Shown: in pieces, positions 4,534-27,478 of the stretch
Numbering within the stretch: position 1 is the first letter of the stretch
How the letters are laid out: each line of letters starts with the position of its first letter
NCBI GenBank assembly: GCA_964187785.1
Contig: OZ076409.1
Span: 34,598,001 to 34,662,000 of the forward strand
Direction: 5' to 3'
Length of the DNA: 64,000 nucleotides
Source of the DNA: Amphiscolops sp. MND2022
Taxonomy: Eukaryota
The notes under the pieces: generated by a model
Seen by the model: the letters and a program-made list of their open reading frames with translations, nothing else
Database searches by the model: none
Told to the model about the DNA's origin: nothing
Program-made: the position numbers and the translations under genes

Positions 4534-4550
4534 TGGTGACAGGAGTGGGA
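3987..4550 (+). pseudogene. gag: LTR-encoded Gag N-terminus of element A (interrupted by stops, truncated at the deletion junction)
   Basis: MPSTRRQKAKARKLRELDMMSDTDNLDIMLG is homologous to element B Gag MPSTRKQKAKERRSRQLDMLSDVENVDIMLG. The frame continues across the LTR/PBS junction as HY-MVTGVG. Confidence 0.85.
4534..4550 (+). other. Primer-binding site TGGTGACAGGAGTGGGA (tRNA-Leu-like)
   Basis: Immediately follows the LTR-terminal CA and starts with TGG (complement of CCA). One mismatch to the complement of the common metazoan tRNA-Leu 3' end (TGGTGTCAGGAGTGGGA), from recall. Confidence 0.85.
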
Positions 4551-6658
4551 GACCGATAATAGGCGCGAAGCTCCGGCGAAATAACTTCCGGGTACACCCT
4601 GGACGAGAGGACAACGGTACAGTTGAACCCGGACTAAAGCGTCTCCTTTCCAGAAGCGAACTGACATTACTCGCGTCCGTCCAACAGTCTCGAATTCTAG
4701 AGAATTTAGATCGCTCGACACAATTTGCTGGGAAAGGTTTCCAATTCCACAAATGAAAATATGGTGGAAGATCGCCTAAACGAAAGAAAAGGTTGATTCC
4801 CAGGAAAGACTTAATGTCATATCATGATGGCTGAAAGCAACTTACGGTTAGCTTTGCTGAACTCCAGTCCAAAGGAAGGAAAGCCTCCTGATGGTCCATA
4901 TGGATCCCAACTTGAGTCCACAAAGCCTGCAGCAATGCTATGTCTCCTGCAATTGGGACCATAGTCCCAATCAAGATGATCTGGGTGGCATCGCGGGAGT
5001 CACTGGTGGTCCGCCGGCATTCCTGACGGGCTAAATACTCCTCGTAGAAGGGGAACACTCCGCCAAGATCCACGAGTAGGGCCCCTTCGAAAAGTGGTTT
5101 TTCCTTCTCCAGTTCCAAGGGGGTCAGGATAACTCCGTCCTTTCCACGAACCTGATGAGTTTCTAATCCAGTTATGGGGTCAACGTTTTTGAGGTACGTG
5201 TACCTCCATAGCTGGTCCTTCCTTAAATGGGATTGATAATGTCGAACTATCTCCCTGGCTCCTTTGGAATAGATCGACATATTACTCTTACAAATTCTGA
5301 AATAGAATTTAAACTGGTTGTGTGCGGGGTCGAGGGGGCCAGTGACAAATGTCTTCGTCCAGCTTATTCCTTTGGAAAAGGCCTCTTTCATGACTTTCCC
5401 AGGCTTTCCTAAGTACTTTCTTCGTTTCCTTGGGGGACTTTTCAGCTGCTTCGATTAGGCAGACTTTGGAAGAAGGCTGGACAGGGGGGCATAGTCGCCC
5501 AGACTGTAACCACTACCTGGGCTCATAGGCGTGCTTCGCCCAGCAGAAAGGTGTTCCGCAGTCCCAGGTTGCCCAGTGCTCGGTGATGTAAGGGTTCGCT
5601 GACTCTCATCTCTCTCAAGACAGAATGACAGACTCCCGGGCTCATCGTCGGTGTTAAATGCGCCACTCGTGTAGCCCTCATTCGGAGAATCCAAATCTGT
5701 GGTTTCATCCCCGGAGCTGCTATGACAGCGTCTGCCTACGGGAGTGCACGCACCCACGTTTCTGCATTTTTCCTTGCTCAAAATTTTTCCTGATGTGGCC
5801 TGCAAAAGCAAGGATTTCATCAAGTGGAAGGAAGACAGGATGGTCTCATCCGAGATGGTCTTCATAACAGTATGGATCTGTTCTTCAGTGAGAGCTATGA
5901 GTGCAATCGGGTCCTTTTCAACGAAATACTTCCGCAACAATGTTCGTCCACTAGCAGAGATTTGTCGGGGTGTCACGTGCTGTGCATTGCTAGTACCGAC
6001 TTGGTCATGAGAAGACTCATCTTCGCTAGTTGACTCTGCCCCTTGGGTGGGAACTTTGACAAAGGTGGACGTGACTTTGGCTTTGGGAGTGACAGGTCCT
6101 CCAACCCCCGAGCTGTGCATCAATTCCTCAGTTTCGCTGGTGTCAGTGTAATACTTGCTGAGGTCAAGGGAGCGATTAACAGCAGAGATGCTAACAACGC
6201 TCACATCATCTTGCTCAGTTTGCTCGTGGGTAGTCTTTTCAATAACCAGGACTTGCGGGGTCACAGAGATTTGCGGGGTTATAGGTCCTGCTTCGCTGCA
6301 CTCACCACTTGATCCAAGCTCAGGGACGACAGCCTCCGTGGTTTCAGCAGTCTGTTCAGTCAATGGAGGGAGCAAGGAAGAGATTTTGGGAGTTCCTGCA
6401 TCTTCCCGGGCAAAGATGGATTTCATGGTCCTTTCGGCGCAAGTGGAAAGGCTCTCTTCAGTAGCCTCACTGGACGAGGAGAAATTGGAGGAGGGTCGCA
6501 GTTCGCCTGTTGAGTTGACGCCAACTGATCCTGCGGGAGAAGTCTCTTCGTGAAGGTTCACTTTCTGGTACAAGAGTTGTGGTTTCTTATGCCTCTGTTG
6601 TCATTTCTGAATAAAAGGAGATAAAGTCTAGCGGGAACCTTCCTGAATATGAATCCAT
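4551..6658 (-). pseudogene. Antisense accessory gene of element A (5' part only; stops/frameshifts; zinc-finger region; one intron)
   Basis: ATG at 6658 (MDSYSG..FISFY.E, same start as element B). ORFs 5455-6573, 4822-5391 and 4485-4721 align with element B ORFs (IALTEEQI..ISDET; MKEAF.KG..WTKTFV.G..DP; SLEF...VRFW). Confidence 0.85.
4776..4845 (-). other. Predicted phase-0 GT-AG intron (70 nt) in the element A antisense gene
   Basis: Minus strand reads AAGCTAACC|GTAAGT...CCTTTTCTTTCGTTTAG|GCGATCTTCCACCAT, joining SAKLT|AIFHHIF. Same position as the element B intron at 16626-16759. Confidence 0.8.
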
Positions 6659-6765
6659 TTACCGCGTTTGAAATCTTCCGGAAGTAGACAAAATTGAACA
6701 CTTGTGAAAACTTGTGTTATTGGACGAAAGTACGTGAATCTGATTAAGAGCCCTGATCAAGCCTA
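6659..6765 (-). promoter_or_regulatory. Conserved upstream region / putative promoter of the antisense gene (element A)
   Basis: Minus-strand motifs CTTGATCAGGG, AGATTCAC, GTTTTCAC and ACTTCCGGAAGATT occur in the same order as upstream of the element B antisense ATG. Confidence 0.55.
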
Positions 6766-7836
6766 GTTCAGTTCATTTTGAAAAGAAGGCAACTTACTTG
6801 AACCGCGATGAGATGATACTGTTAGTGGTTGAGACGGCCTAAATCCAATGGACTGATGACTAGGATGCGTGGTTGAAGGCGGAAGAACAAGTTTGATTAG
6901 GATACGTCGGCAGTGGGGATTCGATGTCGATTATCCAGAAAACCCCAGATAACAACTGGAAGTAAGGATATGCGGACCAGGTGTCCCAGGAGGATTATGC
7001 GAAAGAATGTTCCAAATAAAATACGACTGAAGGACTAGATACAAATGGTAACTAACAACTAAACAATACTAGTGAGGAAGTACTTGATGGAAATTGAATG
7101 TAAAAGCAATAGAATGGTGAATCAACAATTTTACAAAGTGCCGAGATTGGAGTTCGTGGCTATACAGTTTGGTGTCAAATTTACAATTACTTACAAGTTA
7201 CGCTCTTATGTGGATAAAGTCTGCCAGCTATATCTACATTACTTTGCATTATTCTCGAAACTTCAATATTTCATGCAATTATTCCATTATCTTATAATAA
7301 TTCCATTATTTTACCATCTTATTTCAATTTATGTTATTTTCAAGGTCATTATATTTTATTCCTTATAAGGACTTACGGCCTTGGATCGCCATTTTACGAA
7401 TGGAATCATGTTTACGTAATCTGATTGGCTACCACCGAGAGGACGAGACAGCGTGGCTTTCGGACGTATCTTCACCCACTTAAAACCTTCAAGTGGGTCA
7501 TGAGTCATAAACACTCATCATGATGCTTAAGAAGTGAGAGTGGTGTTGAGGATCATGGGTGTCAACAATGCCGCTGTCGGCGATTTCAAAGTGATCAGAG
7601 TAACTAGTTGAAAGGATGTTACCCGGAAAATTCTGTTTTTGAAAAATAACTCAGAAACGAAAAGGAAAACCCGGGAAAACGAAAACCGAGAAACAACGAG
7701 ACACAGCAGTCCGATAAAGGAGAGGATCGCCATTATTGCAAATTCAATTGATCAAATCAGTTGCTCTAGAAACGTTGACTTAATTTGAAAATCCCACTTC
7801 TCCAAGAGTGCCAAAAAACTGTTAAAAGACAGATAT

Positions 7837-8567
7837 ATGTCTGATATTTCTGAAGTATTTCCAATGGATTTCCAAGGTGCTGTTCGATCAGAAGGGGCCC
7901 CGGCAATTATTTGCATTTCTAGTGATGAGGAGGAAATGATGGACTCAAAATGTGGGTGTGACGATTTATATTTATCGTCAGAAGAAGAATCGACAAATGT
8001 AGATATCATGGCTAGCTGCATCGAGAGACAGCTAGCTGAACCAATTGCCATTCCCAACTCCGCGACATCAAGTGCGCAAGTTAGGTGTGGGACACCTAAA
8101 CCAAGCTTCCCACCTTTTCCTACATTCTCTCAGCAGTTCTTTAATCTGGGTTCAGGAAATGGACCGGTGAGACGAGATGCCCGAATCAAGGCCAACCACC
8201 CCATCAACATTTGTAGGGATTCACGCCCTATGATCGATACACCGATGTCGCCTCCCCAGAAGACAGAGGGGCGTCCTGTATGCAAGAGACGCCAATTTGT
8301 TCATCTTCAACGGACACCGCCTCACGGAAATTGGTCCAACAAATTCAAGCGGAAACAGTCAATGATTACATCGATAAAACTGTCGTGCCGGGTGAAAACC
8401 TCGCGGAGACCGAGAGGATGAAAAGGGCCTTTCTGGACGGGATGGCAGCAGGCACATTTTTACTCATGCCAGGGGGAGTGTCGCAGGCAGCCGCCTGCGA
8501 TGGCAACTGGTACTCAGTAGCCTTTGGTTACGACAGAGTATTGCCGGGAACGATCCCCCTAAACTAA
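7837..8567 (+). pseudogene. ORF3 of element A (sense accessory ORF, frameshifted; C-terminus overlaps the PPT and 3' LTR)
   Basis: ORFs 7837-8421 and 8280-8567. The C-terminal RAFLDGMAAGTFLLMPGGVSQAAACDGNWY matches element B RNAFQAGMKAGSVILVPGGLSQAAACDSNYY. Homology probably extends upstream past a TGA at 7786. Confidence 0.75.
8469..8478 (+). other. Polypurine tract CCAGGGGGAG (element A)
   Basis: Purine run directly before the 3' LTR TG at 8479. Confidence 0.8.
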
Positions 8568-10026
8568 AGAAAATCAAAGATTGGGCGCGACAAACAGGCA
8601 AAGTAAAACGAGACCGAAACTTTTACAACAAAACTATTTTGTACTGTTATTTTCAAACATGTAGCTATGTCTATTTAGTTGTTGTGTTAAATTAGTTACT
8701 TTTCAACATGTGAAATTATTCAAATACATTAATAATTGGACACCAAGGCGTACAGGTAGAGGAAACGAGTTCAAATGTTTCCTCTCCTGTCGCTGAGAAC
8801 AGCCAGTCCGATTATTAAATAGACCAATCACAGCGCAGTAGCTGGTTAATTCATTCATTCTAGTATGGCGCAGCTTTGTATAATTGCCGTACTCGGCCTT
8901 TGTTTGTCTGTTTATTCAATAGAGATTAGAGGACTGCTAGTCCAACTTGCCAAGCACCGCCTTTAATGCATCAATAAAATGGTCCCTTCATGTCGAATTG
9001 GACAGTGAGGACGTAATCTATGGCGCTAATAAAGGTGCAATTATAATCATGAAGTGTTGCTTTTTTATACTCCCCGGACTTACAGGGCTAAATACCATGC
9101 AATTTGTTAGTTGACATGAAAGTTTAAACATACATGTAAAATATGTAGCGTTGCGTTGATGTTATGTTGAGGACGTTGCGTTCACATGAACAATTCAAGC
9201 CGACAGGCTTTGAAGTCTATTTTTAGACCATGATGTTATAAGTTGATACTATTTATAGCTCACTGGTTCTAAAAATAGTCCCATGATGCTCCAAATTTGA
9301 GCTGTCACCCTAGCAAGGGTATATAAACAAGGTACTCGTGGTCCTGTGGACACAATTTTGAGAACATTCACCGAAAGCAATATTTTATCATTTATACACT
9401 GTGAACAAGTACTATCAACAATTTGTTGGTAAAGTATATTGGGATAATTCAAATATTTGCTCAATAGAAACATTTATGCCTTCCACAAGAAGACAGAAAG
9501 CCATAGCTAGGAAATCGAGAGAGTTAAACATGATGTCTGATATAGACATCCTAGACATAATGCTGGGGAATTCAGGAGGAAATCCCATAGAGAGAGAGAG
9601 AGTTAGCAGATGCGATTGAACAGTCCTCTGTCCAAGGAGACGTTGAGGCAAATGAGTACCGAAGGAACAATTATAGTTTCGCACAAGAAAATGAACCCCT
9701 TAGGCAAAATGAAGTTAGACAATCTTTTGAGACTTTTACGAACGAGTTCAATCTTAGATTGTCTCAAGAAATGGATTCCATGATGGCCATGGTCCATAAC
9801 CAGATAAACAGAGCGATTAGCACTGCCATAGCAGAAAGAGTCATCCCAGAGATTCAAAACATTGTTAGCTCAACGTCGTCTTCGGGAAATAGGGACACTG
9901 AGGCCAGTATGTCCCCAAGTAGTCAGGAGAATAGGGAAAACTCATCCGGCTTGAAAACAAAAATATTGAAAAAGGACTCACGGTCCGTTGGTGATTTAAG
10001 AGACGCCACGGGAAGTGGTCACTACA
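8479..10026 (+). repeat. Element A 3' LTR (1548 bp), including a second, frameshifted copy of the Gag N-terminus from 9476
   Basis: Direct repeat of 2981-4533 with scattered substitutions and small indels. Confidence 0.93.
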
Positions 10027-10430
10027 CTCCCCTTTCAAGTTTTTCAGCACTATGAGACTGTTTCAAAGTTCTCATTTTTCGAATTTATTTAAGTGTCTCC
10101 AAAGGGCCACCTTCATTTTTTTGATATTTTGCAACAATCTGGATTATCAAAAAGCCGAAAGGGTCCCCTCTTTTACAATTTTAAAAACTTTGCGCTTTTT
10201 GAGCTTTAGATATAGCGCGACATTAGACGTTCACGTCTTGTTTTATCTGAATCAGCTGTTTTGGCATACAATCGTGTGCTATTATTCTGAATCGTGTGCA
10301 ATTCTATTATCGTGCGCAAATTACTCTGAAGCAATGTCTTAGATAAGGTGAGAAAAAAGTCTTCGATAAGTCGCATAAGGCCGAAAAAATCTAAGGGCAT
10401 CCTCTATGTCCCCATGTCGCAAACGGCTTC

Positions 10431-10748
10431 GTCTCTGCTAAAAATTGACGGGGCTTCGTAAGAAAATTCAGCAATTTTTTCAATTCGGATAAGGTCTCAT
10501 AGTGTCGAAGTATTCAGAGAAGACCCTTTAGGTTTGCATAAAACCTTTTTACAAGCCGAATTTTTCTGAAAAAGTGAAGGGGTACCCTTTGACCAAACAT
10601 TTTTTTTGAAAAAAGTCTCATCAGTCTCACAGTCCCAAAAATTAACGTAATAAGGCACATTTAAGTCTCGGAAAGTTTTTCATTAACAGAAAACTACAAA
10701 CAAACAAAAAGATATGTTTTAAAAAACATTTCCGATAATTTTCTTCAG
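10431..10748 (+). repeat. Interspersed repeat, copy 2 (see 2260-2570)
   Basis: Colinear similarity with 2260-2570. Confidence 0.8.
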
Positions 10749-10765
10749 AACTTCTTTAGGATGTT

Positions 10766-11431
10766 TCAATCGGAATGTGATCTTGTGATGTCGCGATTTT
10801 GTTCGCTATTTGTAGAGTTTGTTGAACTCTCTCTAGACCTCAGTCTACTATTTTCCTGTGTAAAACATGTTCTAGAACGATTTTCCCACGTTTTCTGCGA
10901 ATTTCCTCTTTCGGCGTTCCACTCTAGCCCACTGGACCTTCGGTCCTTTAATGTGAAATCGGTCGACCTTGGGCTAGGATGTGGTCCGTTGGACTCCCGG
11001 TCCACCATGGTGAAATTAGGTCTCCCCTGCATTTCTAGTGTATTTTGGATGGAAGGAAGCACTGTACTTGTTATTGCAGCTGTAATTGCAGCCTTAATTT
11101 GGGGATTCAAACCAGTTTTAATTTCATTGAGTTTTCTAGACATTTGATTGGAAATTTCCTCGCTTATCAACCTAGAAGTCTCAATTGTAATTTCACTGTT
11201 TTCCCTGCTGTTGGTATTAAGTAAGGACCTAAAATCTTCTCCTATAGCTTTTGAGCTTTGTTGTGGTCTGCTAGACCCTGAGTCCAAATTCACTTCATTT
11301 TCGCTAACATTTTTCTCTTCATCTTCCCTAGAGTAACTTCCAAGCACTATGTCAACATTTTCTACATCGGACAGCATGTCTAACTGTCTAGAACGACGTT
11401 CTTTAGCCTTTTGCTTTCTCGTGGAAGGCAT
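10766..11431 (-). CDS. gag: Open Gag N-terminal ORF encoded by the element B 3' LTR (221 aa, last few codons in flanking DNA)
   Basis: Nearly identical to the first ~214 aa of the 24049-25800 Gag, with no internal stop. Expression is unknown. Confidence 0.6.
   Translation of the reverse strand: MPSTRKQKAKERRSRQLDMLSDVENVDIVLGSYSREDEEKNVSENEVNLDSGSSRPQQSSKAIGEDFRSLLNTNSRENSEITIETSRLISEEISNQMSRKLNEIKTGLNPQIKAAITAAITSTVLPSIQNTLEMQGRPNFTMVDRESNGPHPSPRSTDFTLKDRRSSGLEWNAERGNSQKTWENRSRTCFTQENSRLRSRESSTNSTNSEQNRDITRSHSD
10784..10788 (+). repeat. Target-site duplication TGTGA (left; right copy at 26795-26799)
   Basis: Identical 5-mer directly outside both termini of element B. Confidence 0.9.
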
Positions 11432-12424
11432 GAGAAGGGGATTTGAGTTTCAAAGTTAATTGCAAATATCAACTAACAAGATAATCCAAATCAACAAAGT
11501 ATGTATTAGCAGAGTTTTAAACTCAAGGTTCAGTATCGTGACAATATTATATTGACTTGTTTGTATCAAGATTGTGAAAGTTTTTCCCTCTCTCTCCAGT
11601 GTTCCCGCTCTTTATAGTTTGGGTGGCGTTACACACAGAATTATGCGAGTCATGGTTCTAAAAATAGCAATAGGTGGGGTTTTAGAACAGCTCTAGGGAC
11701 ATTACGTCACTATTTCATCATGTCTATAAGGACAAAAATAGCATCAAAGAGAAGCGGCTAAAGGTTGTAGTTGGAGATTATGACGTAATATAAATATGCA
11801 TGGAGGAATATTATTATGCCTGAATATACTATTTACATGTTTATATTTCCAATAATAACAGTACATGTCATTAGAATAATCACAAACAGTGTGAGTGGCA
11901 ATTACGCCAAATCGGACGTAACGTCCATGCGGCGTCACCAATTGTATAGCTAGTTCGATTTGATTGGTTAATATAGCACTCGACGTTGCGTACAATCAGC
12001 CACAATAACAGTACATTTGAACACGTTTCCTTACTGTGCTTCAATTGCATTCTAATACAGCATTCAAATTGATCATTTTACATTGCTAATTCCAATTCAT
12101 TTGGTACATTACTATTTCAACAATAATCAACAGGTAAATCAAGCACAAACTAACTATAATATTAAGCAACGGTAAATTACATAAAGTAGAGTGTTTTGTG
12201 ATTAATTTTAACACAATTGTTTGATGAGGCCGTATCGACCTAAGGTCCTTTATGTTTTGGACGCAGTTTCTCTATATTTGCCTCAATTTGAGTGAGGCCA
12301 TCCGTACCATCGGTCCATTGTTGTCAAACCTTCTAAATAGGGAGTACTCCTGGCGGGGGGTTAGATAGATCGTTTACTGAAGGGATCTGGTAGTAATTGC
12401 TGTCACAGGCGGCAGCCTGCGACA
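10789..12424 (-). repeat. Element B 3' LTR (1636 bp)
   Basis: Direct repeat of 25158-26794; about 17 substitutions counted by eye in the first 643 bp. Confidence 0.96.
11611..11667 (-). promoter_or_regulatory. Putative LTR promoter of element B (3' LTR copy): MEF2-consensus site 11658-11667 and TATAAA 11616-11611
   Basis: CTAAAAATAG lies 41 nt upstream of TATAAA on the minus strand; the 5' LTR copy is at 25981-26037. Confidence 0.55.
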
Positions 12425-14170: not shown

Positions 14171-14293
14171 AAGTTGAACTTGATCAAGGTTCAACTTTTG
14201 ACTAGATTCACTTCCTCCATTTTAAAATGTTTTCACGTTGAAACATTAATTTGAACATAACTTACTTCCGGAAGATTGTCAAAATGCGGCAAA
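14171..14293 (+). promoter_or_regulatory. Putative promoter of the element B antisense gene
   Basis: Near-palindrome AAGTTGAACTTGATCAAGGTTCAACTT, then AGATTCAC, GTTTTCAC and ACTTCCGGAAG (14264-14274) before the ATG at 14294. Motif order is shared with element A. Confidence 0.55.
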
Positions 14294-14564
14294 ATGGATT
14301 CATATTCAGGAAGTACACCGCGTAAATTTATCTCTTTCTATTTAGAACAAGAGACTAACGGCCAACCAACTCAGAAATTAGCTGAGGTTGAAGAGACTGA
14401 CAGGAACGAATTTTCAATCCCTGATACTGCTCACGATTTTCCAACCAGCAATCAACAATCGTCGAGTGAAATCAAAGAGAACGAGGTCAAACAATTACAG
14501 GCTCCCGACCCCTCGCACAGCAACAGTCGAGTAATAGCAGAGGGTAAGGACATTGAGCTCTGCC

Positions 14565-14780
14565 CGCCTCAGACATCTGAACTTGCCAAGGAGGACCAGC
14601 CAATGACTGAAGCCATGGACACAGAGTCCAACCAGCCTCAAACATCAGGACCTCCCAAGAGGGACCAGCCAATGATTGAAGCCATGGACACTGAGTCCAA
14701 CCAGCCTCAAACATCAGAACCTCCCAAGAAGGACCAGCCAATGACTGAACCCATGGACACAGAGTCCAGTCAGCCTCAGA
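14565..14780 (+). repeat. 69-bp coding tandem repeat, about 3 copies (DQPMTEAMDTESNQPQTSGPPKR)
   Basis: GACCAGCCAATGA begins at 14594, 14663 and 14732. Confidence 0.92.
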
Positions 14781-16625
14781 GTCATGAAGCTGCTTCCAGT
14801 AGCCAGCATGTTCAAGCAGAAGTCATGCAAATTGGGGTTAGCCAAGATCAGACTCCAACAGAGGTTTCGCCGTTGTCTAAGCTGCTTTGATCTGACGGAA
14901 GTGAATCAAATGAGAGCTGCCAGGCATTTTTCACGCGCAAAATGCAAGAACTTGGTACTGAGACCAACGAGGAGGGAACCCTAGCGGACCATGAAGCCTC
15001 CCAGAAGGAGAGTGAAAGTGAGTTAATAACTGTCTTTCCTGGCCAAGAGCAAAAGGAACGACCAGACCGACAGTTTCATCAGGTTCCTGCTGTAACATTC
15101 TTAGATACTGTTACAGCGTATTCGGCTTCAAGCAATTCCTCTGCCATTGGGAATTCTAAGAAAAGAGCCAAATTAGTACGACCTGCTACTCCTTTGCGCC
15201 CAGCTTTGCAGGACGATACCTCTAGTGAGCCGTCGTCCATAGCTTCTTCCACAACATCTAATGGTCTCCATCATGGCTTTGGTGAACCAGAGCAACCGAT
15301 CCGAACGGGTAGCAGCTCTGATAATGGGCTTGAGACCGATGCTGAGTCATCTAATGCAGGTGGTTCTACTATGGCCGATGCCCTAACTTCCGGGAGGTAC
15401 AATCCCTTGGTCGAAGTCGACAAAGCCTCCAGTCAATCAGCAAGTTTACCTCCTGCTCCAGCTGGTAAACCTGAACCGCTAAAAGTCAGTAGCTGAGCTC
15501 TATTGAAAGAGTATTTTTCTAAAACTGAACAGGTTGAGTTGCTTCGAGGTCACTCTACCATAGCCTTGACTGAAGATCAGATATCTAGCGTACTGAGGGT
15601 CGTAGCCGATGAGACTGCCAGGGCTTCTTACGAAGTGCTCGAGAATCTGGTATTCCGTGCCTGCATTCTTAGCTTAAACACCTCGGTACCAGGCAGGAGA
15701 GTCTCCAAGAAGTTTAATGTACGTAGCCTTTCACAGGGATCTGATCAAGGCGAATCCGAAACTGAAGCGGGAAGTGACACTAGTCATGGTATCCGTAGTG
15801 ATGACGACTTCGGGAGAATTGGCTACGCATATGAGCACTCCGAAACTGAAATAATTGGCAGACCACCTACTGCACAGCTCATTCCTGGGTGTGGCTCTAA
15901 TGACCAAGCGTCCCCTTGAGTTCAGCGTCAATAGTCCAGGATCTCAGACCCTTGCGGCGCTACAAAGAGAAGCCTTGCAGGATCAGAGTTCAAGTCGGGG
16001 CAATCCCAGCAACCGACGCATTCCCGCATCGAGAGGACGTACTAGGAGGCCGATTACTCGCTCCTGTAAGGTCATGAAGGAGGCGTATTTTAAGGGTATG
16101 GAGTGGACGAAGACTTTCGTGTCAGGGTCAGTCGATCCGCGATGGAACCCTTACAAATTTTATTGTCAAATTTGCAAGGCAAACATATCAATATATGGAA
16201 AAGGAGCCCGAGAAATCTTGCGACACCACTCTACCGAAAAGCACTTGAGGAAAGACCAAAGGTGGAGGTTCGAGCATCTATCTAAGGTAGACCCAGTTAC
16301 CCGCAAAGTTGTGCATCAAGTCAGGGGTAAAGACGGCAAACTCCTCACACCTTACCAGCTTGAGTTAGAATACCCAAAGTTCAAGGGTGTACCGTTGGTG
16401 GATATCGGCAAGAAGCTACCATTTTATGACGAATTCATGGCGGGTACTGATTACATGGCATCTTCTTTGGGCGACCGAGCAAAAATTCAGATTTCCATTT
16501 TGTGCCGATTTCTCACCCATTATGGGGATATTGATGTGCTCAAAGGATTCTGGAGCGACGTGGGAGTGATTGTGAACCACCAGGCACTGTTCACAGACTT
16601 CGATTGGAGCAGGGAAAGACTTTCA

Positions 16626-16759
16626 GTTAGTATTTTCACTTTACTCGGGCGTGTACATTGTTAGAGAATTGTAGTGGACCTAAGGTTCTTTCAGCCTCAT
16701 GCTAGGCGAGGTCGCCTAACTAGCTAAATTCTGACATAAAAGGCAAGATTGTGTTATAG
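16626..16759 (+). other. Predicted intron 1 (134 nt, phase 0) of the antisense gene
   Basis: CTTTCA|GTTAGT...GTGTTATAG|GTCATCTTCCATCAC joins RERLS|VIFHHLFLEMM in frame with ORF 16787. Confidence 0.8.
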
Positions 16760-17235
16760 GTCATCTTCCATCACTTATTCCTTGAGATGATGAATCACAT
16801 TGGAAGCCATATCTCTGAGTATTCTTTGGAATTCGCTCAAGAAGGAGTTTTCCTGCTGGTATTTATCCGATTTTGGCGTGATGACCAAATGTGTAAGGTC
16901 TTCTTGAAAAGGACCGGACGTCTCCTCAGCATCACTCAAGCTGAGGTGAGGCTTGTTTCCAACGTCATGGGCGTATTCTCAACGAAGCCCCACTTAGTCA
17001 GTTGTACTGGAACAACGCACCGAAGTATCGTCTTGCTGGACCAATGCCCCTACGCAGCTTATGGAATCCAGAGTCCCCCCGTTTTGAAGAGCTGTCTCTG
17101 AAGACCATAATGCATAAGAAGGGGTACAGTGTGTTCGGAAAAATATACTTCTTCTCGGTTGTGCAATTTGTCATCGTGTGTCTGGGAGGCTGTCTAGATC
17201 AGGACTGGATGTTGGTGTCTCCTGAATTGTCGAAG

Positions 17236-17305
17236 GTTGGTTTAAGACTTTGTTCTTTGCATCTAGCTCCTAGGATTTTAGACTGAGCCCTTCTTTTGTA
17301 TTCAG
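17236..17305 (+). other. Predicted intron 2 (70 nt, phase 0)
   Basis: TCGAAG|GTTGGT...TTCTTTTGTATTCAG|GCAATT joins the ORF 17002 frame to the ORF 17324 frame (one TAA remains at 17321). Confidence 0.65.
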
Positions 17306-17440
17306 GCAATTAGATCATGCTAATTGGATATCAATGGTCTACCAGTCCTCTGCCAAGAACTGTTGCGTCACTGGAGCAAAGTGGTTACTTTCTTGTCGAA
17401 AAGCACCCCTACCCAAGAAGGCACAGGAGTCCGCAAACAA

Positions 17441-17507
17441 GTAAGAGTTCTCTGGCTCCTTAGACCTACGGTCCAATGCAGTTTCTCAACTGAGTGTTTC
17501 TTTTCAG
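17441..17507 (+). other. Predicted intron 3 (67 nt, phase 0)
   Basis: AAACAA|GTAAGA...GTTTCTTTTCAG|CCCCAG; the following 82-nt exon is open (PQSLEWSLVYDDFFPSRLELFYRLVRD). Confidence 0.7.
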
Positions 17508-17589
17508 CCCCAGAGCTTAGAATGGTCTCTTGTTTACGACGACTTCTTTCCAAGTAGACTCGAGTTGTTCTACCGATTAGTGCGCGATT

Positions 17590-17657
17590 GTTAGTGTTGT
17601 CATTCATAGTTTTGCCATATACCATTGGGTTCAAAGTTTTCACTCATTCTTTTATAG
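17590..17657 (+). other. Predicted intron 4 (68 nt, phase 1)
   Basis: GATT|GTTAGT...TTCTTTTATAG|TCACC restores the frame of ORF 17588-18946 (LVRD-F-TSSFTTNLKRRR). Confidence 0.7.
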
Positions 17658-18972
17658 TCACCAGCAGTTTCACCACCAATCTCAAGCGGCGCCGTGATCG
17701 AGGCTTCCATGTGTATCGAGAGCTAGGTCAATATCTCTTCAAGCTGGGCAGACGTTGCGTCAGTTCCAGCAGCATTCCTGAAGAAAGTGATTTTCCCGGG
17801 GTCTACAGTCTCGTTATGGCTGACACTAAGGCTCTGTCAGTAGCTGACTTCCTGTCCCGGTCCAAATTGAGCGAAAAACTAGCAACTGCATGCAAGCTGA
17901 AAGCGGAAGCCGAGATGAGTGAGAAGAAAAACGAAAAGCTGACTCCAGCTGAAGTTACAGAGAACATTAAAGCTGATTTTGGACGCACTGCTCGTAGTTA
18001 TGTAGTCACCCTATTCGGTACTGCTCAGAAGCTCCAGAGATTCACCAGCGATATAGTGAGAGGACTGGGTTCTTTTGATTTGGACGTGATGTTGGTCGAC
18101 CCAATATCTTTGGCGACCTTTTGTTTCAAGGAGTTGTTTACCAGTTTCCGTTTGCGAGGTGTGTTGCTGGCAGACGAAGAGACGATTTACTTCGAAGAGT
18201 ATTTCTCATTTCTTGACGAACTCCGCAAACTTCACCCCAACATCTCCCAGCCAAAACTGCTTATTCCTGACGTTATTGAGTTTGTGTGTGGACAGGAGTC
18301 CTACAGGTCTCGACCTCATCTCATGAGGATTTTCAGACTCAGTTGTCTTTGTCTAGATGCTCCTCGCGTCTCCTTTCCCCCTGTCAAGTTTGGGACAGTC
18401 CATACTGATGACCCAAAAAGTCCAATGTTCGATGTTGTTACACCGTTGCAATCGTACCTCAGCAATGTTGCCCGCGGGGTAGAAGTTTTCACCTCAGAGT
18501 CTTCGATCTCCTATTTTCCCGCTCTGGAACCGACTTTTGGGTCAACTGGGCTAAGGGGCATTTACAGTCCCTGGAGTGACTTGGATAAGTTTGGATGGGC
18601 TGAGATCAATGACGTCATCAATAGTGTGACGCCCAAAGGCCCGAAGGTCTCCGCCGCAGAGGATGCCCCTAGTACCAGTAAAGCCTCATCGTCTTTTATG
18701 GTGCCAAAGCCAGGGAAGAGGCGTAGTCACTTGATTTCAGATGAAGAGCTAAACAAGTCCGCTGAGCGTTTAAATGCTAGTTTAGATAAGTCCTTATTGT
18801 ACCATATGTACAATTGTCATTTTAGTTTTTTGTACAGTGCTTCTAAAACTTTTCGTATAGACACTTTGGGATTCTATTTAGTGTTACTGTATTCTTTGTC
18901 TTTTATTCAGTCAATTCCGCAAAGATACTATTCTGCAATTGTTTAATCAGGACAGTTAATTTACAATTCTGG

Positions 18973-21900
18973 CTAATATCTGTATTCGTCGTTAAAGTTG
19001 GAGGTGGGGTTAGGTCGTAGGTTATATTTTCCTCCCCTAGGGCAAATCTAATACTTCGGACACGATAGTATCACTCCCTCCTGACGATTGTTGATCGTCA
19101 ATCCCATCATTTATGCGTTCTGAACGTGTTTTTTTCAAGCGGAGCGAATTCATCATTTTCGTGTGGCCCTGTGGACCTAAGGTCCACGTCGGTGAAAGTT
19201 TCGTCTGGCGCTCTGGCGCTCTGGCGTCATTTTCTTGAGGCCTGGTGGACGTAACGTCCACGTCGGTGAAAATTTCGTCCGGCGCTCTGGTATTGTTGGC
19301 GTAATCATTAGAAGTGTCTAGCGCTTCTCGACATGTAGGAATTGCGGTTTCTTCAGTGGAATTGGGAAATTCTCCGAAATTGGTATCCCAAGTGATGACA
19401 TATAGGTCATCTTGCGGAATAATAATTTCATCGTCCGGTTGCAAATTCCCTTCCGGTCTGGTGTCTCGTAGGACTGTGTTCGGTTCATATTTGCGTAGTC
19501 TGATGCGGTGTAAAATTTGCGTTTTGTTAGAATTTAGTTTTCTGACTATATAGTTTTCATTTGGCAAGACATTTTCTACCATATAGGGTCCTGTCCATCT
19601 GTATTCGCGAAATGGAATTTTCGATCCCTGGTGGTCGGCGATAGGTTGCAGTATAAAACAGTAGTCGTTCTGTTTCAAGGGGGCCGCTTTGGCCTTCCGG
19701 TCGTAATATTCTTTGTACTTCAAATAGGATTGCATAATGTTTTTCTTTGTTTAATCAAGTAAAATTTGCGTCCGGCGCTGAAAATCATCTGCAAAGTCTG
19801 TGGTTGGTAGGACTTTCGGGTTGGGATTAAGGCCCAATTTGTGATCCAATATATTATACGGAATTCGTCCGTGAAATATTCTAGATGGTTCACAACCTAG
19901 GGTAGCGTGATAGGTCGTATTATAATTTAATACGGCTAAAGGCAAATGTTTGTGCCACTGTCGCCTGTAGTCCCCTGAGGCCATCTTGAGGTTTGTTTTG
20001 AGACTGGCATGGGTACGTTCTAATTTGCTTATTGTTTGCGGGTAATTGTAGTTGCGCATTTTATTCGAATTCCGAGAATTTGAGCTACTTCGGCGACCAG
20101 TCTGGACGTAAAAGCCGTCCCTTTATCCGTGATCAAGGTAGTAGGCAAATAGGTATGTTTGGTCATTATGTCTATAATAACCTTTGCCGTGTTTGTGGCC
20201 GAAGCGTCAGTAACTGGATATGCAAAAAGATATCTTGAAAACACATCCATTGCAGTTATGATGTTTTCATAACCTCCGCTGGGGGGCAGGTTCGGTAACA
20301 AATCATTTTGCATTGCGTCTTCCGGACCTAAGTCCCATTCAGGCAAGTTGAGCAATTCGGGAGTTATGGATGGGTTTGGGACTCTTTTTTCTTTAATGCA
20401 AATTTCGCATCCTTGAACCCATTTTTTAACAATTTTTGCAATGCCAGGGTAGTAATATTTTTGGCGAATTCCGACGAGCATCTTGGATATTCCAGGGTGT
20501 TTATTGGCTTTGCCGTGTAGGGATTCAAATAGTTCATGTACCAGATGTTTAGGTAAAAGCATCTGATTGTATTTGACAGCTCCTGTTTCATCAAAATACT
20601 GTCTAGTAATAATTTCATCCATAACGGACAGTCGGTCCATTTGGCGACAGTAATGTTGGTAACGAGTATCTTGCAGGAGGATGGTCTCAGAATACCTTTC
20701 TTTCAGTATTTTTAGGCGCAATTGTTGCAAAATGACGTCGTTGTTTTGCTCCACTGCTATAGAGTTCGTGTAGGATAGTTTTTGAAGCGTGGAGAGTTTG
20801 TGATAGTCACTTTTGTGTGTAGTAAATTTTTCGAATAAAATATCAGGTATTTGATTTGATGGATGGTCCCTAGCGTCTTTTTTGCGCTGTAAAATTTGTT
20901 CTTCCGTCTCGTCATCATCCTCTGTATAGAAGATTTGTTCCTCTTCCGAAACTCCGGCCGATTGGACATGTAGTTCGATCGGTGTTGTAGGAATATCTTC
21001 TCTGATTCTGAGGAATAATTTCTCTTTTGGAGAGATCTCCAGACGTGACAGGTAATCAGCCGCTGTGTTGTTTTTGCCAGGGATGTGTGCTATTGTGAAG
21101 TTGAACTGGATTACATAATCACAAGCATTCCATAATGTCGGCGGAATAATTTTAGTTTGAAAAAATCGCGTGACGGACTTGTTGTCCGTGAGTATAATCA
21201 CCGGTTTTGGGGTTCCCCAAAAGATATGTCCAAATTCCTTGAAGGCAAAGAAAATTGCTAAGAATTCCTTGGCATAGATGGACATTTTCAATTGGGTAGG
21301 ACTGAAGGTCTTGGATCCATAAGCTACTGGTGCGAAAGCTTTCCTCGTAGAAGTGTACTTCTCGAGTGGATCGTCCTCGATGAGAACTGCGTACCCTGCG
21401 GCCGAATAGCTGGCATCGGTCATAAGGGCTATCTGCTTGTTCGGTAAGGGTTGTTTGAGTGCCAGTTCGCAACATCGATCAAGAGCCTTGTTTATCTCGG
21501 TAAATTGTGCCAATAGGTCCGGTGTTACCAGGACTTTTTCATCTTTAGTGAGCAGTTTGAAAAACGGCGTTAGTTTTTCTGATAGTCTTGAGATGTAGTT
21601 TCGGTAATAGTTCAAAAATCCCAAGTAACGCTGTAGCGCTTTCTTGGATTTCGGGAATTTCGTATTTTCTAGGAAATTTTGGACCCGTGGTCTCTGTGGC
21701 TTCACTCCAGCAGGAGTGATGGTGCGTCCCCGAAAGTCGATTTCCGTTGCGCCAAAATGGCATTTATGAATCGTATGCTTGAGACCGGCTTTTTGTGTGC
21801 ATTGGAATGTGGCCCTCAGGTTGTTGACGAGTTCTTCAGCATCGTTAGCAGCATTGCCAATATCATCAACATATTGCGCGCATTGGTCTGCTTTGATGAC

Positions 21901-24046
21901 TTTGTCCAAGTATTCGCGCATGAAACTAGAGAAGGCCGATAGGGCTCTGCTGAGGCCCGGTGCCAATCTTCTGTACGCGAAAGATCTGCTGGCAAAATTG
22001 AAAGCAAGCATTTCAATGGACCGTTGGTCCGCCATTTGTAGGCAATGGTAAGCTTGCGAACAGTCCAACTTACAGAATAGCTTCTTCCCAGCCATGTGTT
22101 GGGCCGCGTCTGTAAGCGTACTTACTGGATGGTTATTGTTGATGTAATCATCCGATATCAAGTTGTTTATTTTACGCAAGTCGACCAAAAGTCGCAGTTT
22201 GCCATTGGGTTTCTTTTGTGCAAAAATGGGGCTTGCGTACTTAGAGAATGGGAGTGTTGTAATGATCCCATAGCGATGTAGTAAGGCTAGTTCCACAAGG
22301 ATGTCTTCTTTGAGGTTAAATGGGGTTGGTAAACTTTGACTGTAGGCCGGAGAGTCGTCTTTCGAGGTCAATTTGGGTCAAGTCTTCGTTCATGACGATT
22401 TCAAATCGATGTCTTGCGAATATATCATGGAATTGAACACGTAGGTCTTCGATGCGGGCTATTTCAGCAGGTTGGAGCATAGAGTCTGTCCAATCAAAAT
22501 TGGATAGGAATTGACGTCTCGACTCAGAGTCGTTCTGAGGATTAAGTTTTTCCAATTCCTGGAGGTTGATCAGTTCTGACAAAATCCGTTTTTGAATCGG
22601 TGTATGATGCTGAGGATCCCCAGAGTCCTCTGGTGTTCGAAACCAGTAGTTTTCCTTGAAGTACTCAGGCTTAGTAGATTTGATCAAGCTGCTTGCATAG
22701 AAAGCAGCGTTTTCCGGATTGTCCTGCAAAACGTGCCAGGTGGTCACCGGGTCGATAGGTTTGACATATTTCATCTGTTCCGGCGTAAGGACAGTGAAAT
22801 TAGCAACTTGTGTACCTCTTTTAAGGGTATAGGGACTGTCGAAAAAATTGTTCAGGTGAACCGATACTCGACCATTGGTCAATGTGACTAGAGCAGCACA
22901 GAAAGCAATATCGCCATCATCCGTAAGGGTGTTGCTCGGTTGAAGGATCCCGGTAACTGTAGTATCCTCGTACAGTTGTGAAGCCATGAGGACCGAGTGT
23001 CGGTCATTAGGTGGGATGGTTACATCCTCTCTAATGCAAAGGGATTCCATGACATTTGTATATTTGTGATCTGCAGTTTTGAGCTGCATTGAGAAGAAAG
23101 GAAAATTTAGGACGCCTTGTCGCATGTCCAGAATGGTGTTATTCCTTTGAAGGAAAGAAAGACCAATTAATGGACTGGTGAGTTTCTCCATGACTATAAA
23201 GATTTCATAGAAATCTATGTCGCCGACTTCAAATTTCAATTCGACGGTGCTTTTAGGATCTTCCAGCTGTCCGTTTGCAACCATTATTTGGAAGTTGGGA
23301 GCTGGACCCTCTTTAATAATAGACTGAGGGGCCAATAATCGTATTTTACGTAGATCAGCTTCAGGGATTGCGCTAGATAGAGCTCCCGTGTCTACAAGGC
23401 CATCTAGTGTTAGTTCGCCAAAATCCATTGGAAAATAGAGCATTCGTCGTTTGTATTTGAGGCCAAGATTGGCAGTCAGCGGCACATAGTCCGGTTCCCC
23501 TGTTCTGGTGACCAGGGTGCTCACATAGCGTGCCGCAACGGCTGTGGCCAAGGAGACCTGTGGTCCCTCATGGTGAAATTCATCACCGACATTGGAGTGA
23601 GTGGTTTGATGGGCGAGCTGTGCGCCATGTTGCCATGGGTCAACTCGTGCTTTGGTAAGAACTGTATTTAGGGCTTGGTCAGATTCAAAAGAATCTGGTT
23701 CTATATTCGAGTTCTGTTTGTCAAAATTGTGGTAGAAGTACAGATGATATTGATTGTAGCAATTAGCGTCCCAATAGGGGTCAAAACCATAGCCGGGGTC
23801 AGGATAGTATGGGTTATAGTCATCAATGAGGGGTATAAGTCGTATAGTAGTAGTATCAGTTTGTAGTCTGTTGGACATAGAGTCCAAAGTGGTCTGAAAA
23901 TTAGGTGGAGTTTTCATCTGCTGCTGCCAGTCAGCTGATGAAGTTTCTTTAAGAGCTGTATAATACTCAGTGTAATATATATTTGGAGGGTCGGATATTA
24001 TGTACTGTCGTACACGGAGTTTTTCATGTAATTGGAGTCGTGGCAA
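18973..24046 (-). pseudogene. pol: Pol polyprotein (aspartic protease, dUTPase-like spacer, reverse transcriptase, RNase H, integrase), broken by frameshifts near 22370, 20050, 19745 and in the C-terminal tail
   Basis: PR LVDTGA; RT KLRLLVDLRKIN, KLDCSQAYH, YVDD; RH TDAS, KEFLAI, TDNKS, AADYLSR; IN HHCC (LHG...HPG...CEIC), TDKG, ERTHASL; tail RGGKYNLRP...YRY* ending at 18973. Confidence 0.95.
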
Positions 24047-24048
24047 AT

Positions 24049-25800
24049 CTAGTTTTTTGGATTCTTTAAGATGGACGTGGTTTGTTTATTTTTCACGTCG
24101 TCTTGGCTGGTGGACTTATCGGTGGCCGTGGTGTCATCCAGTTTAAGGTTTTTGGGCTTGAGGTGGGCTCCAGCGCCTTTCCAACATCGTTCCGCCGGGT
24201 GGTTCGTTTTGTCGCAAGTCGGACATTTGGGATATTCTTTCTTTGTATCCTGCCCTTCATTGCGGCGTTGTTCTTCCTTTCTTTTAAGTTTGCGGCAATC
24301 GTCTTTGACATGTCCAGGTTTCTTGCAATAGTTGCAAGTAATGTTTGGATCAATGCCAGAGGAAAGAAGGCCAGTTCCCGGTCGTGTTGCTGTAGGGGCA
24401 GTGGACATTGTTGGTACTGGAATGTCGTCCCCCTCCTCAAGTCCATTGAGCTCAAGCTCTCGTTCTAGATGGGTGACAATTTCCTCATAGGTGGCGTTTT
24501 CAAGTCTAGCCATATTGACGGAGCGTTTCAATTTTGGCGGCAACTTGGCATAGAGGAGACTATCGAACATGGCCTGGGCGTTCTGGCCAAACGCCTTTTC
24601 AGCTCCTTGGTTTAATTCCCCAAGGAAGTCGGGTAGTTTCATGGTGTTTGGATCAACCACCAATCTGTGCCATTTGTGTTTGGCGGTCGCCTGGGATTCA
24701 GGTTTAACGTATTTCCGACGAAATACAGCTAGAATGTCTTCCAATGTTTGCCTGTTTGCCGTATTGATGGTACGGAAAGTTTGTAACAGTGAATGAAAAA
24801 GATTGATTTTCATCGTTTCGGTCATATCAGGTTGCATTTTTATCATTGTGTGAAAGAGATCTTCAAAAAGTTCGAATTTCTCTGATTTGCCGTCGAAAGT
24901 CAGTGTAGTCGTGCTGACTGGGCGTACCATCAGTGTTTGTGCTGATGGACGGCTGTTCATGCCGACTAGTACTTCTGCAAGACGGTTAATGGGATCAGAA
25001 GGAACAGTTGGTGTTGTGGTCTCAGGGACCTGGGGAATTGTATCCTGAGACTCGTCATTGTTGGAATTTTGACGTTGCAGGGGATCTCGAGATAGCATGG
25101 GACGTCCAGTGAGAAACTCGGGAACCATATGTGGGGTAGGTTTGGCTCCTGTCACCATGTCGCGATTTTGTTCGCTATTTGTAGAGTTTGTTGAACTCTG
25201 TCTAGACCTCAGTCTACTATTTTCCTGTGTAAAACATGTTCTAGAACGGTTTTCCCACGTTTTCTGCGAATTTCCTACTTCGGCGTTCCACTGTAGCCTA
25301 CTGGACCTTCGGTCCTTTAATGTGAAATCGGTCGACCTTGTGCTAGGATGTGGCCCGTTGAACTCCCGGTCCACCATGGTGAAATTAGGTCTCCCCTGCA
25401 TTTCTAGTGTATTTTGGATGGAAGGAAGCACTGTACTTGTTATTGCAGCTGTAATTGCATCCTTAATTTGGGAATTCAAACCAGTTTTAATTTCATTGAG
25501 TTTTCTAGACATTTGATTGGAAATTTCCTCGCTTATCAACCTAGAAGTCTCAATTGTATTTTCACTGTTTTCCCTGCTGTTGGTATTAAGTAAGGACCTA
25601 AAATCTTCTCCTATAGCATTTGAGCTTTGTTGTGGTCTGCTAGACCCTGAGTCCAAATTCACTTCATTTTCGCTAACATTATTCTCTTCATCTTCCCTAG
25701 AATAACTTCCAAGCATTATGTCAACATTTTCTACATCGGACAGCATGTCCAACTGTCTAGAACGACGTTCTTTAGCCTTTTGCTTTCTCGTGGAAGGCAT
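24049..25800 (-). CDS. gag: Gag polyprotein (583 aa) with two CCHC zinc knuckles; first ~214 codons lie inside the 5' LTR
   Basis: CNYCKKPGHVKDDC and CPTCDKTNHPAERC; capsid-like FDGKSEKFELFEDLF region; directly upstream of pol. Confidence 0.93.
   Translation of the reverse strand: MPSTRKQKAKERRSRQLDMLSDVENVDIMLGSYSREDEENNVSENEVNLDSGSSRPQQSSNAIGEDFRSLLNTNSRENSENTIETSRLISEEISNQMSRKLNEIKTGLNSQIKDAITAAITSTVLPSIQNTLEMQGRPNFTMVDREFNGPHPSTRSTDFTLKDRRSSRLQWNAEVGNSQKTWENRSRTCFTQENSRLRSRQSSTNSTNSEQNRDMVTGAKPTPHMVPEFLTGRPMLSRDPLQRQNSNNDESQDTIPQVPETTTPTVPSDPINRLAEVLVGMNSRPSAQTLMVRPVSTTTLTFDGKSEKFELFEDLFHTMIKMQPDMTETMKINLFHSLLQTFRTINTANRQTLEDILAVFRRKYVKPESQATAKHKWHRLVVDPNTMKLPDFLGELNQGAEKAFGQNAQAMFDSLLYAKLPPKLKRSVNMARLENATYEEIVTHLERELELNGLEEGDDIPVPTMSTAPTATRPGTGLLSSGIDPNITCNYCKKPGHVKDDCRKLKRKEEQRRNEGQDTKKEYPKCPTCDKTNHPAERCWKGAGAHLKPKNLKLDDTTATDKSTSQDDVKNKQTTSILKNPKN
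24052..24058 (-). other. Putative -1 ribosomal frameshift heptamer A AAA AAC at the gag-pol junction
   Basis: CCA AAA AAC TAG at the end of gag; the pol ORF is in the -1 frame. Confidence 0.75.
25146..25157 (-). other. Primer-binding site TGGTGACAGGAG (tRNA-Leu-like), translated as part of gag (MVTG)
   Basis: Follows the LTR-terminal CA; same 12 nt as the element A PBS. Confidence 0.85.
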
Positions 25801-26794
25801 GAGAAGGTGATTTGAGTTTCAAAGTTAATTGCAAATATCAACTAACAAGATAATCCAAATCAACAAAGTATGTATTAGCAGAGTTTTAAACTCAAGGTTC
25901 AGTATCGTGACAATATTATATCGACTTGTTTGTATCAAGATTGTGAAAGTTTTTGTCCTCTCTCTCCAGTGTTCCCGCTATTTATAGTTTGGGTGGGGTT
26001 GCACACAGAATTATGCGAGTCATGGTTCTAAAAATAGCAATAGGTGGGGTTTTAGAACAGTTCTAGGGACATTACGTCACTATTTCATCATGTGTATAAG
26101 GACAAAAATAGCATCAAAGAGAAGTGGCTAAAGGTTGTAGTTGGAGATTATGACGTAATTTAAATATGCATGGAGGAATATTATTATGCCTGAAAATACT
26201 ATTTACATGTTTATATTTCCAATAATAACACTACATGTTATTAGAATAATCACAAACAGTGTGATCGGCAATTACGCCAAATCGGACGTAACGTCCATGT
26301 GGCGTCACCAATTGTATAGCCAGTTCGATTTGATTGGTTAATATAGCACTCGACGTTGCGTACAATCAGCCACAACAACAGTACATTTGAACACGTTTCC
26401 TTACTGCGCTTCAATTGCATTCTAATACAGCATTCAAATTGATCATTTTACATTGCTAATTCCAATTCATTTGGTACATTACTATTTCAACAATAATCAA
26501 CAGGTAAATCAAGCACAAACCAACTATAATATTAAGCAACGGTAAATTACATAAAGTAGAGTGTTTTGTGATTAATTTTAACACAATTGTTTGATGAGGC
26601 CGTATCGACCTAAAGTCCTTTATGTTTTGGACGCAGTTTCTCTATATTTGCCTCAATTTGAGTGAGGCCATCCGTACCATCGGTCCATTGTTGTCAAACT
26701 TTCTAAATAGGGAGTACTCCTGGCGGGGGGTTAGATAGATCGTTTACTGAAGGGATCTGGTAGTAATTGCCGTCACAGGCGGCAGCCTGCGACA
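25158..26794 (-). repeat. Element B 5' LTR (1637 bp)
   Basis: Direct repeat of 10789-12424, followed by the PBS. Confidence 0.96.
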
Positions 26795-27478
26795 TGTGAA
26801 TTCTGAAAAACTCCTGCTGTACGATTCTTTAAACAATCGAATTTGAAATTTAGCTTTTTGTTTATACAAAAAAGCCGTTACAAAACAAGTTGAACTTTCT
26901 TTAGTTGCAAGATATACAAAAATTGATATTAAAAAGGGCTTCTCCAAAGCGCCTTGGACATAAGGGGCGATTTTATAGTTCTTGGAATTGATGTTGAATT
27001 ATGTTCGAGTTGATTTTTCACGCCTCTATTGAAACCTAATTCAGTGTGTCTTCAATGATTGTATTAACTCACGGGAAAAAGCTTTAAATTTTTCATACTT
27101 TTAAAAGCCCAATTAAAAACCAGTTAAACTGGAAAGTTTGTCAATTATGAATAAATTGTATATATTTTCAAATCTAGCTTTTCAATTTCAAAAATATAGA
27201 ACTGCTAATTATTCAATGAGAAAGAGGAACTTCACGTTGGTTGGTTGTGGGAAAAAGTTATCAAATCGCCAAAATGTTATCAAGAAACAAACACAGAGGC
27301 AATGCTCAAAATTTATGTGGTGATTAGATTACTGTTAAAAAAATTATTATTAGCAAATTTGGGGCTATGAGAATGTCGCTTTAAAAATTCTGAAAACAGT
27401 GTAACGTCATCCTGTGATCAACGAAATTTTGGCAAATTTTGAAAAATTCGTTTAAAACTGACGTGGCACTTGAACATG

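Follow-up and report, generated by a model that had tools for sequence, protein, structure and literature searches.

LTRs are treated by working rule as regulatory, with gag in the internal part. HIV nef and MMTV sag are LTR-coded, being separate proteins encoded in the U3 of the 3' LTR. For a gag start ahead of the LTR end, the principle is known from Ty1, for which the available text of one account places the beginning of GAG before the PBS and the PBS inside the GAG frame (PMC4974528), and that of another gives a 5' UTR of only 53 nt (PMC3592414). From a PBS at nt 94-104 and this 53-nt UTR, as given in those portions, we calculated an overlap of about 40 nt, or 13 codons, in agreement with the view of the preliminary description of the present locus that Ty1 has only a short overlap. 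As far as the same available text goes, Ty3 has a Gag3 protein of 290 aa and a PBS segment adjacent to its 5' UTR (PMC4974528), and a fish V-clade element is described as having a pol/LTR overlap only (available text of PMC11117352). The accessible parts of PMC8278194, PMC554778 and PMC4202319 hold no precedent for a gag/LTR overlap, and a long one was not found in the literature searched; subscription papers and Repbase notes, most of which lie outside that literature, may record an instance. Also relevant are the Troyka elements, described in the available text of PMC12440569 as having CG..CG ends, 3-bp TSDs, CX2CX8-10HX4C knuckles, no GPY/F motif and LTRs of 100-400 bp; the same source names the GPY/F motif in the integrase C-terminus as a Ty3/gypsy hallmark.

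The window, the whole 64,000-nt stretch of Amphiscolops sp. DNA analysed here, carries two LTR elements, A and B (Table 1), whose LTR pairs were both recovered by self-BLAST of positions 1-30700. The gag frame of element B starts within the 5' LTR, 214 codons from its end, and passes on through the LTR terminus and the PBS, and the first third of Gag is likely encoded by R/U5, a reading to which we assign a probability of about 0.82. Measured from the LTR 3' end, the ATG at 25800 (LTR position 995 of 1637) lies 643 nt inside the 5' LTR, which confirms the distance given in the preliminary description. Since 643 nt equals 214 codons plus 1 nt, the ATG contained in the junction GAC-A/TGG-TGA-CAG-GAG (slash, LTR end) begins with the terminal A of the LTR, and the earlier reading of this junction as D-M-V-T-G is borne out by the LTR ends and the PBS position. 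The proposed overprinting of the integrase end CA, the PBS and these codons likewise holds, as they share bases in GAC-A/TGG. No stop interrupts the LTR-coded stretch, against 2-26 stops in the other five frames, and none of 20000 base shuffles was stop-free (mean 14.3 stops); GC content differs little between the three codon positions (0.40, 0.44, 0.39). The 3' LTR copy is also open over the 214 codons (11431..10766, minus strand) and continues into the flank. With 214 of 583 codons inside the LTR, the claim that over a third of Gag lies in R/U5 is supported, the R/U5 assignment being drawn from one TATA match and an ATG-free leader. As this stretch is conserved like protein, the LTR, usually a regulatory sequence, likely codes for the initial third of Gag. 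Like Ty1, element B has a gag start upstream of the LTR end and a PBS within the gag frame; unlike Ty1, it is a gypsy rather than a copia element, its overlap amounts to 643 nt or 214 codons (195-303 in the listed relatives), and this overlap contains two conserved modules. In the literature searched, no overlap of this size, sixteen times that of Ty1, was found, nor its occurrence in a long-LTR gypsy element.

Table 1. Positions of the features of elements A and B in the window (position 1 is its first base).
Feature	Position	Strand	Remark
Element B	26794-10789	minus	Ty3/gypsy retrotransposon
Element B 5' LTR, 1637 nt	26794..25158	minus	TGTCGC..GCGACA; self-BLAST and end inspection
TATA box candidate	25980..25986	minus	sole TATA[AT]A[AT] match in the B 5' LTR
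ATG-free leader	25801..25986	minus	TATA candidate to gag ATG
Whole gag frame, 583 aa	25800..24049	minus	open; LTR-coded third, spacer, capsid-like helical domain, knuckles
LTR-encoded Gag part, 214 codons + 1 nt	25158..25800	minus	from frame and LTR ends
Module 1, Gag residues 1-35	25696..25800	minus	basic, most conserved, protein-level selection
Module 2, Gag residues 75-135	25396..25578	minus	predicted long amphipathic helix
Element B PBS, TGGTGACAGGAG	25157..25146	minus	directly after LTR CA; read as M-V-T-G
A AAA AAC heptamer	24052..24058	minus	just before gag stop, pol in -1 frame; predicted frameshift site
pol	19037..24085	minus	protease, RT, RNase H, integrase with WTGPY; Pfam
Antisense frame chain	14261..18946	plus	C2H2-like finger; between pol and 3' LTR; common to A
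3' sense frame, 340 aa	12333..13355	minus	no Pfam match; crosses polypurine tract, about 30 codons into U3
Element B 3' LTR	12424..10789	minus	self-BLAST; carries open copy of 214 codons
TSD TCACA, 5 bp	26795..26799; second copy 10784-10788	minus	flanks element B
Element A	2981..10026	plus	diverged sister family; LTRs 2981-4533, 8479-10026
Element A PBS, 17 nt	4534-4550	plus	

By its domains and motifs element B is a Ty3/gypsy (Metaviridae) element, this group being the nearest by solved structures rather than by a tree of named clades. Pfam searches on the pol pieces gave the order PR-RT-RH-IN, pol itself being fragmented in this copy by frameshifts and one stop, and the GPY/F motif is present as WTGPY in frame 19750..19037 (Integrase_p58_C, E 0.004). 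Among solved structures, a Pol relative with 96% identity to the RT region of the window (P0271) matched Ty3 Gag-Pol with E 9e-44 and foamy virus with E 2e-27, and Pol relatives overall numbered 1838 matches among 7999 candidates, the 120 listed all being ENA entries. TG..CA LTRs, a TSD within 4-6 bp, a PBS and a PPT are all present, and the LTRs are 97.5% identical (self-BLAST segments 25157-26794 and 10788-12424; true ends in Table 1). CX2CX4HX4C knuckles occur twice in Gag of element B and at least once in 76 of the 120 listed relatives, among which the Gag C-terminus ILKNPKN/ILKNSKN is common. The element thus shares with Ty3 the PR-RT-RH-IN order, GPY, CCHC knuckles, TG..CA ends and a 5-bp TSD; unlike Ty3, it has a Gag of 583 aa that starts in the LTR, together with antisense and 3' sense accessory frames. 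Membership in Ty1/copia (Pseudoviridae) was ruled out by the position of integrase after RNase H, not before RT. Troyka elements, as described in the available text of PMC12440569, are LTR elements that also come from marine animals, share the gypsy-like order of domains and include derivatives with internal deletions; membership was ruled out against that description by the TG..CA ends, 5-bp TSD, CX2CX4HX4C knuckles, WTGPY and 1637-nt LTRs of element B. A weak dUTPase match (E 0.062) was observed between protease and RT, at about 22790-23040 on the minus strand, and PF00692 occurs in one listed relative. Pol of element B had no phage match, no related DNA was found in metagenome or viral contigs, and Rfam gave 0 matches in window positions 1-30700.

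The assignment of the gag ATG to R/U5 draws on one TATA match followed by an ATG-free leader in both elements, the distance from match to ATG being 186 nt in B and 156 nt in A. These leaders are the longest ATG-free gaps in all four LTRs, and 123 and 235 of 5000 shuffles were equally ATG-free. Within the leader, a poly(A)-signal-like hexamer is followed by a T/GT-rich run, a candidate end of R; if this were used, R would be about 100 nt long and the whole coding block would be U5. The poly(A) candidate stays a guess, since the alignment of the A and B leaders was only weakly above shuffles (16/500). The base at -3 of the first ATG is weak (C in B, T in A), and the junction Met stands in a strong GAC-ATG-G context. 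For the primer, no tRNA was found in the window, and none of 38 prokaryotic matches to the 17-nt PBS of element A lay in a tRNA gene; the PBS may resemble the 3' end of a leucine tRNA.

A homologue search with residues 1-215 yielded 144 proteins among 715 candidates, of which 120 were listed; openness is partly selected in this set, because the search returns open proteins of 320-1021 aa only. An MPSTR-like start is present in 106/120 listed relatives and MVTG in 112/120, and both occur in 102, at a distance of 195-303 residues. These 102 proteins form 7 clusters at 60% identity (lowest pair 35%), and 66 of them reach a zinc knuckle. All changes in length of the LTR part among the listed relatives preserve the frame. 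In one subfamily (P0073, P0075, P0080, P0086, P0088 and P0094), in-frame insertions in the second linker give an LTR-coded part of 302-303 residues. A distant Gag, P0391 (35% over the part that aligns), likewise shows a helix and, with it, a DMVTG motif ahead of the capsid region. The capsid region of the B copy carries a five-residue in-frame deletion at Gag residue 338-339 relative to all 29 aligned relatives.

A second search, performed without a length limit, gave 726 cluster representatives, and among the 150 listed the LTR-end peptide was found in 38, six of which go on into the PBS peptide and 32 into unrelated sequence, as would be seen for 3' or solo LTRs. The next residue in these run-out copies is compatible with an A start in 31/32 (24 obligate), compared with 44.5% among the residues that come after it (p 2e-10, with a weakly anchored copy and another that may be internal both counted), which puts the LTR terminus of other subfamilies at the base found here, as judged from their proteins rather than their DNA. 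The run-out tails of these stand-alone LTR products range from 1 to about 90 residues.

Conservation along the LTR-coded part is uneven. Identity to distant clusters is 66-80% over residues 1-35, 23-44% over 36-70, 47-59% over 71-140 and 19-28% over 141-214, with 88-93% for the capsid, and blastn finds strong matches between the A and B LTRs in two places only, the initial 28 nt and codons 1-31 (72.8%). Codon tests, which rest on two families (A and B), gave 6/6/15 differences by codon position in codons 1-32 (pS 0.64, pN 0.19, Fisher p 2.6e-4) and, from a protein-guided alignment with saturated synonymous sites, pS 0.83 and pN 0.46 in codons 71-140 (p 9e-5). In all eight testable representatives of the ten given, conservative replacement in residues 1-35 exceeded at least 191 of 200 neutral runs; residues 71-135 went beyond neutral runs in 3/10 representatives, 36-70 in 1/10 and 136-214 in 0/10. 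The test is weak, since the capsid control did so in only 1/10, and the representatives share ancestry and do not count as independent. When sequences were allowed to drift neutrally to 80, 70 or 45% identity, 26, 8 and 0 of 300 runs, respectively, remained free of stops. The expectation that the upstream codons would prove non-neutral therefore stood for codons 1-35 and partly for 71-135, where third-position bias and pN<pS were found, and was not borne out for 36-70 and 136-214, which look neutral at the amino-acid level but are stop-free throughout. Our reading is that the LTR part may comprise two constrained modules and linkers that need only stay open and in frame. Comparison of 5' with 3' LTRs gave pN/pS of 0.86 in B and 0.70 in A, indicating that the copies in the window have diverged neutrally since insertion, as expected.

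AlphaFold placed one helix at residues 75-135, with pLDDT 79-87 over 91-130 in a full-length Gag model that was otherwise poor (pLDDT 42.6), and a fold search with that model returned only generic long helices (Z 5.5-5.9). Hydrophobicity in residues 84-135 has a 95-degree period (2/2000 permutations), and conservation has no helical period (1156/2000 permutations). A three-copy complex prediction of residues 66-138, in which the alignment was not used, scored 0.02. Past the junction, a capsid-like helical domain extends over about residues 265-455; the model of this region (pLDDT 51.6) matched best a SCAN domain (Z 5.7, rmsd 2.2, 46 aligned), and the C-terminal part of this low-pLDDT model matched HTLV-1 CA (Z 4.3) and the Arc C-lobe (Z 3.9), with no Foldseek match at E<=0.001. 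Language-model (Atlas) features of Gag point to Retrotrans_gag/Ty3_capsid clusters (0.92-0.94), and those of residues 1-140 gave a best score of 0.78 and no family. The LTR-coded head would most likely be a matrix-like module for localisation or targeting and oligomerisation.

We propose that transcription would begin about 25 nt after the TATA candidate at 25986, near 25960. The next ATG in the sequence, behind a leader that lacks ATG in both A and B, is the one at 25800, where scanning ribosomes would start. A start at this position is favoured because 14 further ATGs precede the PBS Met. The frame would then be read across GAC-A/TGG, where the sequence shows the D-M-V-T-G codons sharing bases with both the PBS and the CA of the integrase end, and a -1 shift at the end of gag would yield Gag-Pol. 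Reverse transcription would first copy about 800 nt of R-U5, rebuilding the coding block in both LTRs in each cycle; by this replication of the LTR, every 3' LTR and solo LTR would carry the promoter and an open-ended Gag head. The arrangement would likely have originated from an older start at the junction ATG that was extended 5', a simple origin since CA/TGG itself contains an ATG.

Among other explanations, the one we rank highest, and still consider unlikely, is that Gag mainly starts at the junction Met, whether by splicing, from an internal start site or through internal ribosome entry, with the upstream part made as a minor longer isoform. That Met is invariant and in strong context, but its invariance is not evidence for a start, being forced by CA plus TGG once the frame is fixed. 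Residues 215-583 alone hold the capsid-like and knuckle domains, and conservation rises just past the junction; selection on codons 1-35 would still require upstream translation, and the 14 intervening ATGs separate 25800 from the junction. AG dinucleotides are present after the last upstream ATG, although the splice acceptor candidates have poor pyrimidine tracts, at best 10 of 18.

It is less probable again, at about one chance in twenty, that the frame represents an accessory gene of the U3 type, driven from the 3' LTR in the manner of HIV nef or MMTV sag, its fusion to gag being incidental. It is true that the 3' LTR holds an open copy and that databases contain many predicted stand-alone LTR products, but no stop ends the 3' copy before it leaves the LTR for the flank, the phase to the PBS is constant over lengths of 195-303 and in element A, and in both families the ATG is preceded by a TATA candidate. 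Lowest of all stands the explanation that the frame is untranslated and is open by chance or by constraint on U5 as DNA or RNA. About half of the stretch is neutral in amino-acid terms and its GC is flat by codon position, as this would predict, but it is largely refuted by the absence of stop-free sequences both among the 20000 shuffles and among the 300 neutral runs to 45% identity, by the third-position bias and pN<pS in codons 1-32, and by length changes that all keep the frame. Translation from the ATG inside the LTR, supported by sequence evolution, is the reading preferred here.

Element A had been said to share the arrangement of B. Its ATG at 3987 indeed lies 547 nt (182 codons plus 1 nt) before the LTR end and in the same phase; the frame itself is broken, by two stops in its 5' LTR copy and by an insertion of 4 nt in its 3' LTR copy, reads Y-M-V-T-G at the junction and stops soon after. 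By tblastx, element A is without Gag core and pol, its PBS running directly into sequence that matches the antisense region of B, and its frame ends 8 codons past the junction because these parts are missing. Its LTR pair is 94.7% identical, and a clean target duplication was not found for it. A repeat of about 400 nt, 80% identical, was observed on both sides of the element (2200-2582 and 10343-10759). One relative, P0086, reads MVTGVGF and then unrelated sequence, and element A jumps into the antisense region after the 17-nt PBS; both presumably fit a tRNA-templated copy of 18 nt followed by a wrong plus-strand jump that deleted gag-pol.

The 3' end of element B appears to be overprinted as well, such that protein frames would cover both LTR ends. 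The 3' sense frame has a counterpart in element A at 8217-8567 (plus strand), and the U3 peptide P-G-G-L/V-S-Q-A-A-A-C-D occurs in both. Between A and B, the 54 codons before the LTR gave pS 0.73 and pN 0.42 (p 0.0013), and the first 12 U3 codons gave pS 0.52 and pN 0.14 (p 0.054). Like nef and sag, the Gag head of element B is coded in an LTR, and the 3' sense frame crosses the PPT into U3 likewise; unlike these separate U3 proteins, the head occupies the opposite half of the LTR and is joined to the rest of Gag. The antisense frame chain has its counterpart in element A at 6600..4822 (minus strand), with 41-49% identity in blocks. More tentatively, and in our estimation doubtful, this gypsy lineage may have come to use its LTR as a coding cassette at either end, with a matrix-like Gag head of 195-303 residues in U5 and a second gene running through the PPT into U3, so that protein frames would overprint the two integrase ends and the two primer sites; the hundreds of truncated heads and fusion starters that the genome would then contain could provide dominant-negative copy-number control or seed chimeric host genes.

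If the proposed translation is true, R/U5 can carry about 650-900 nt of selected coding sequence, a strong-stop DNA that reaches or exceeds about 800 nt is tolerated in reverse transcription, and for this lineage a model that takes coding into account is needed both in LTR-LTR dating and for solo-LTR expression. According to the available text of PMC12440569, Repbase stores LTR and internal portion separately, and libraries split in this way would remove a third of Gag and treat solo LTRs as non-coding. The lineage further offers a natural test, in at least 7 subfamilies, of how an att site and a PBS evolve under a reading frame. Beyond the elements, window positions 30600-64000 contain an array of a 47-bp satellite, several hundred copies long and with strong strand skew, which begins about 4 kb from element B.
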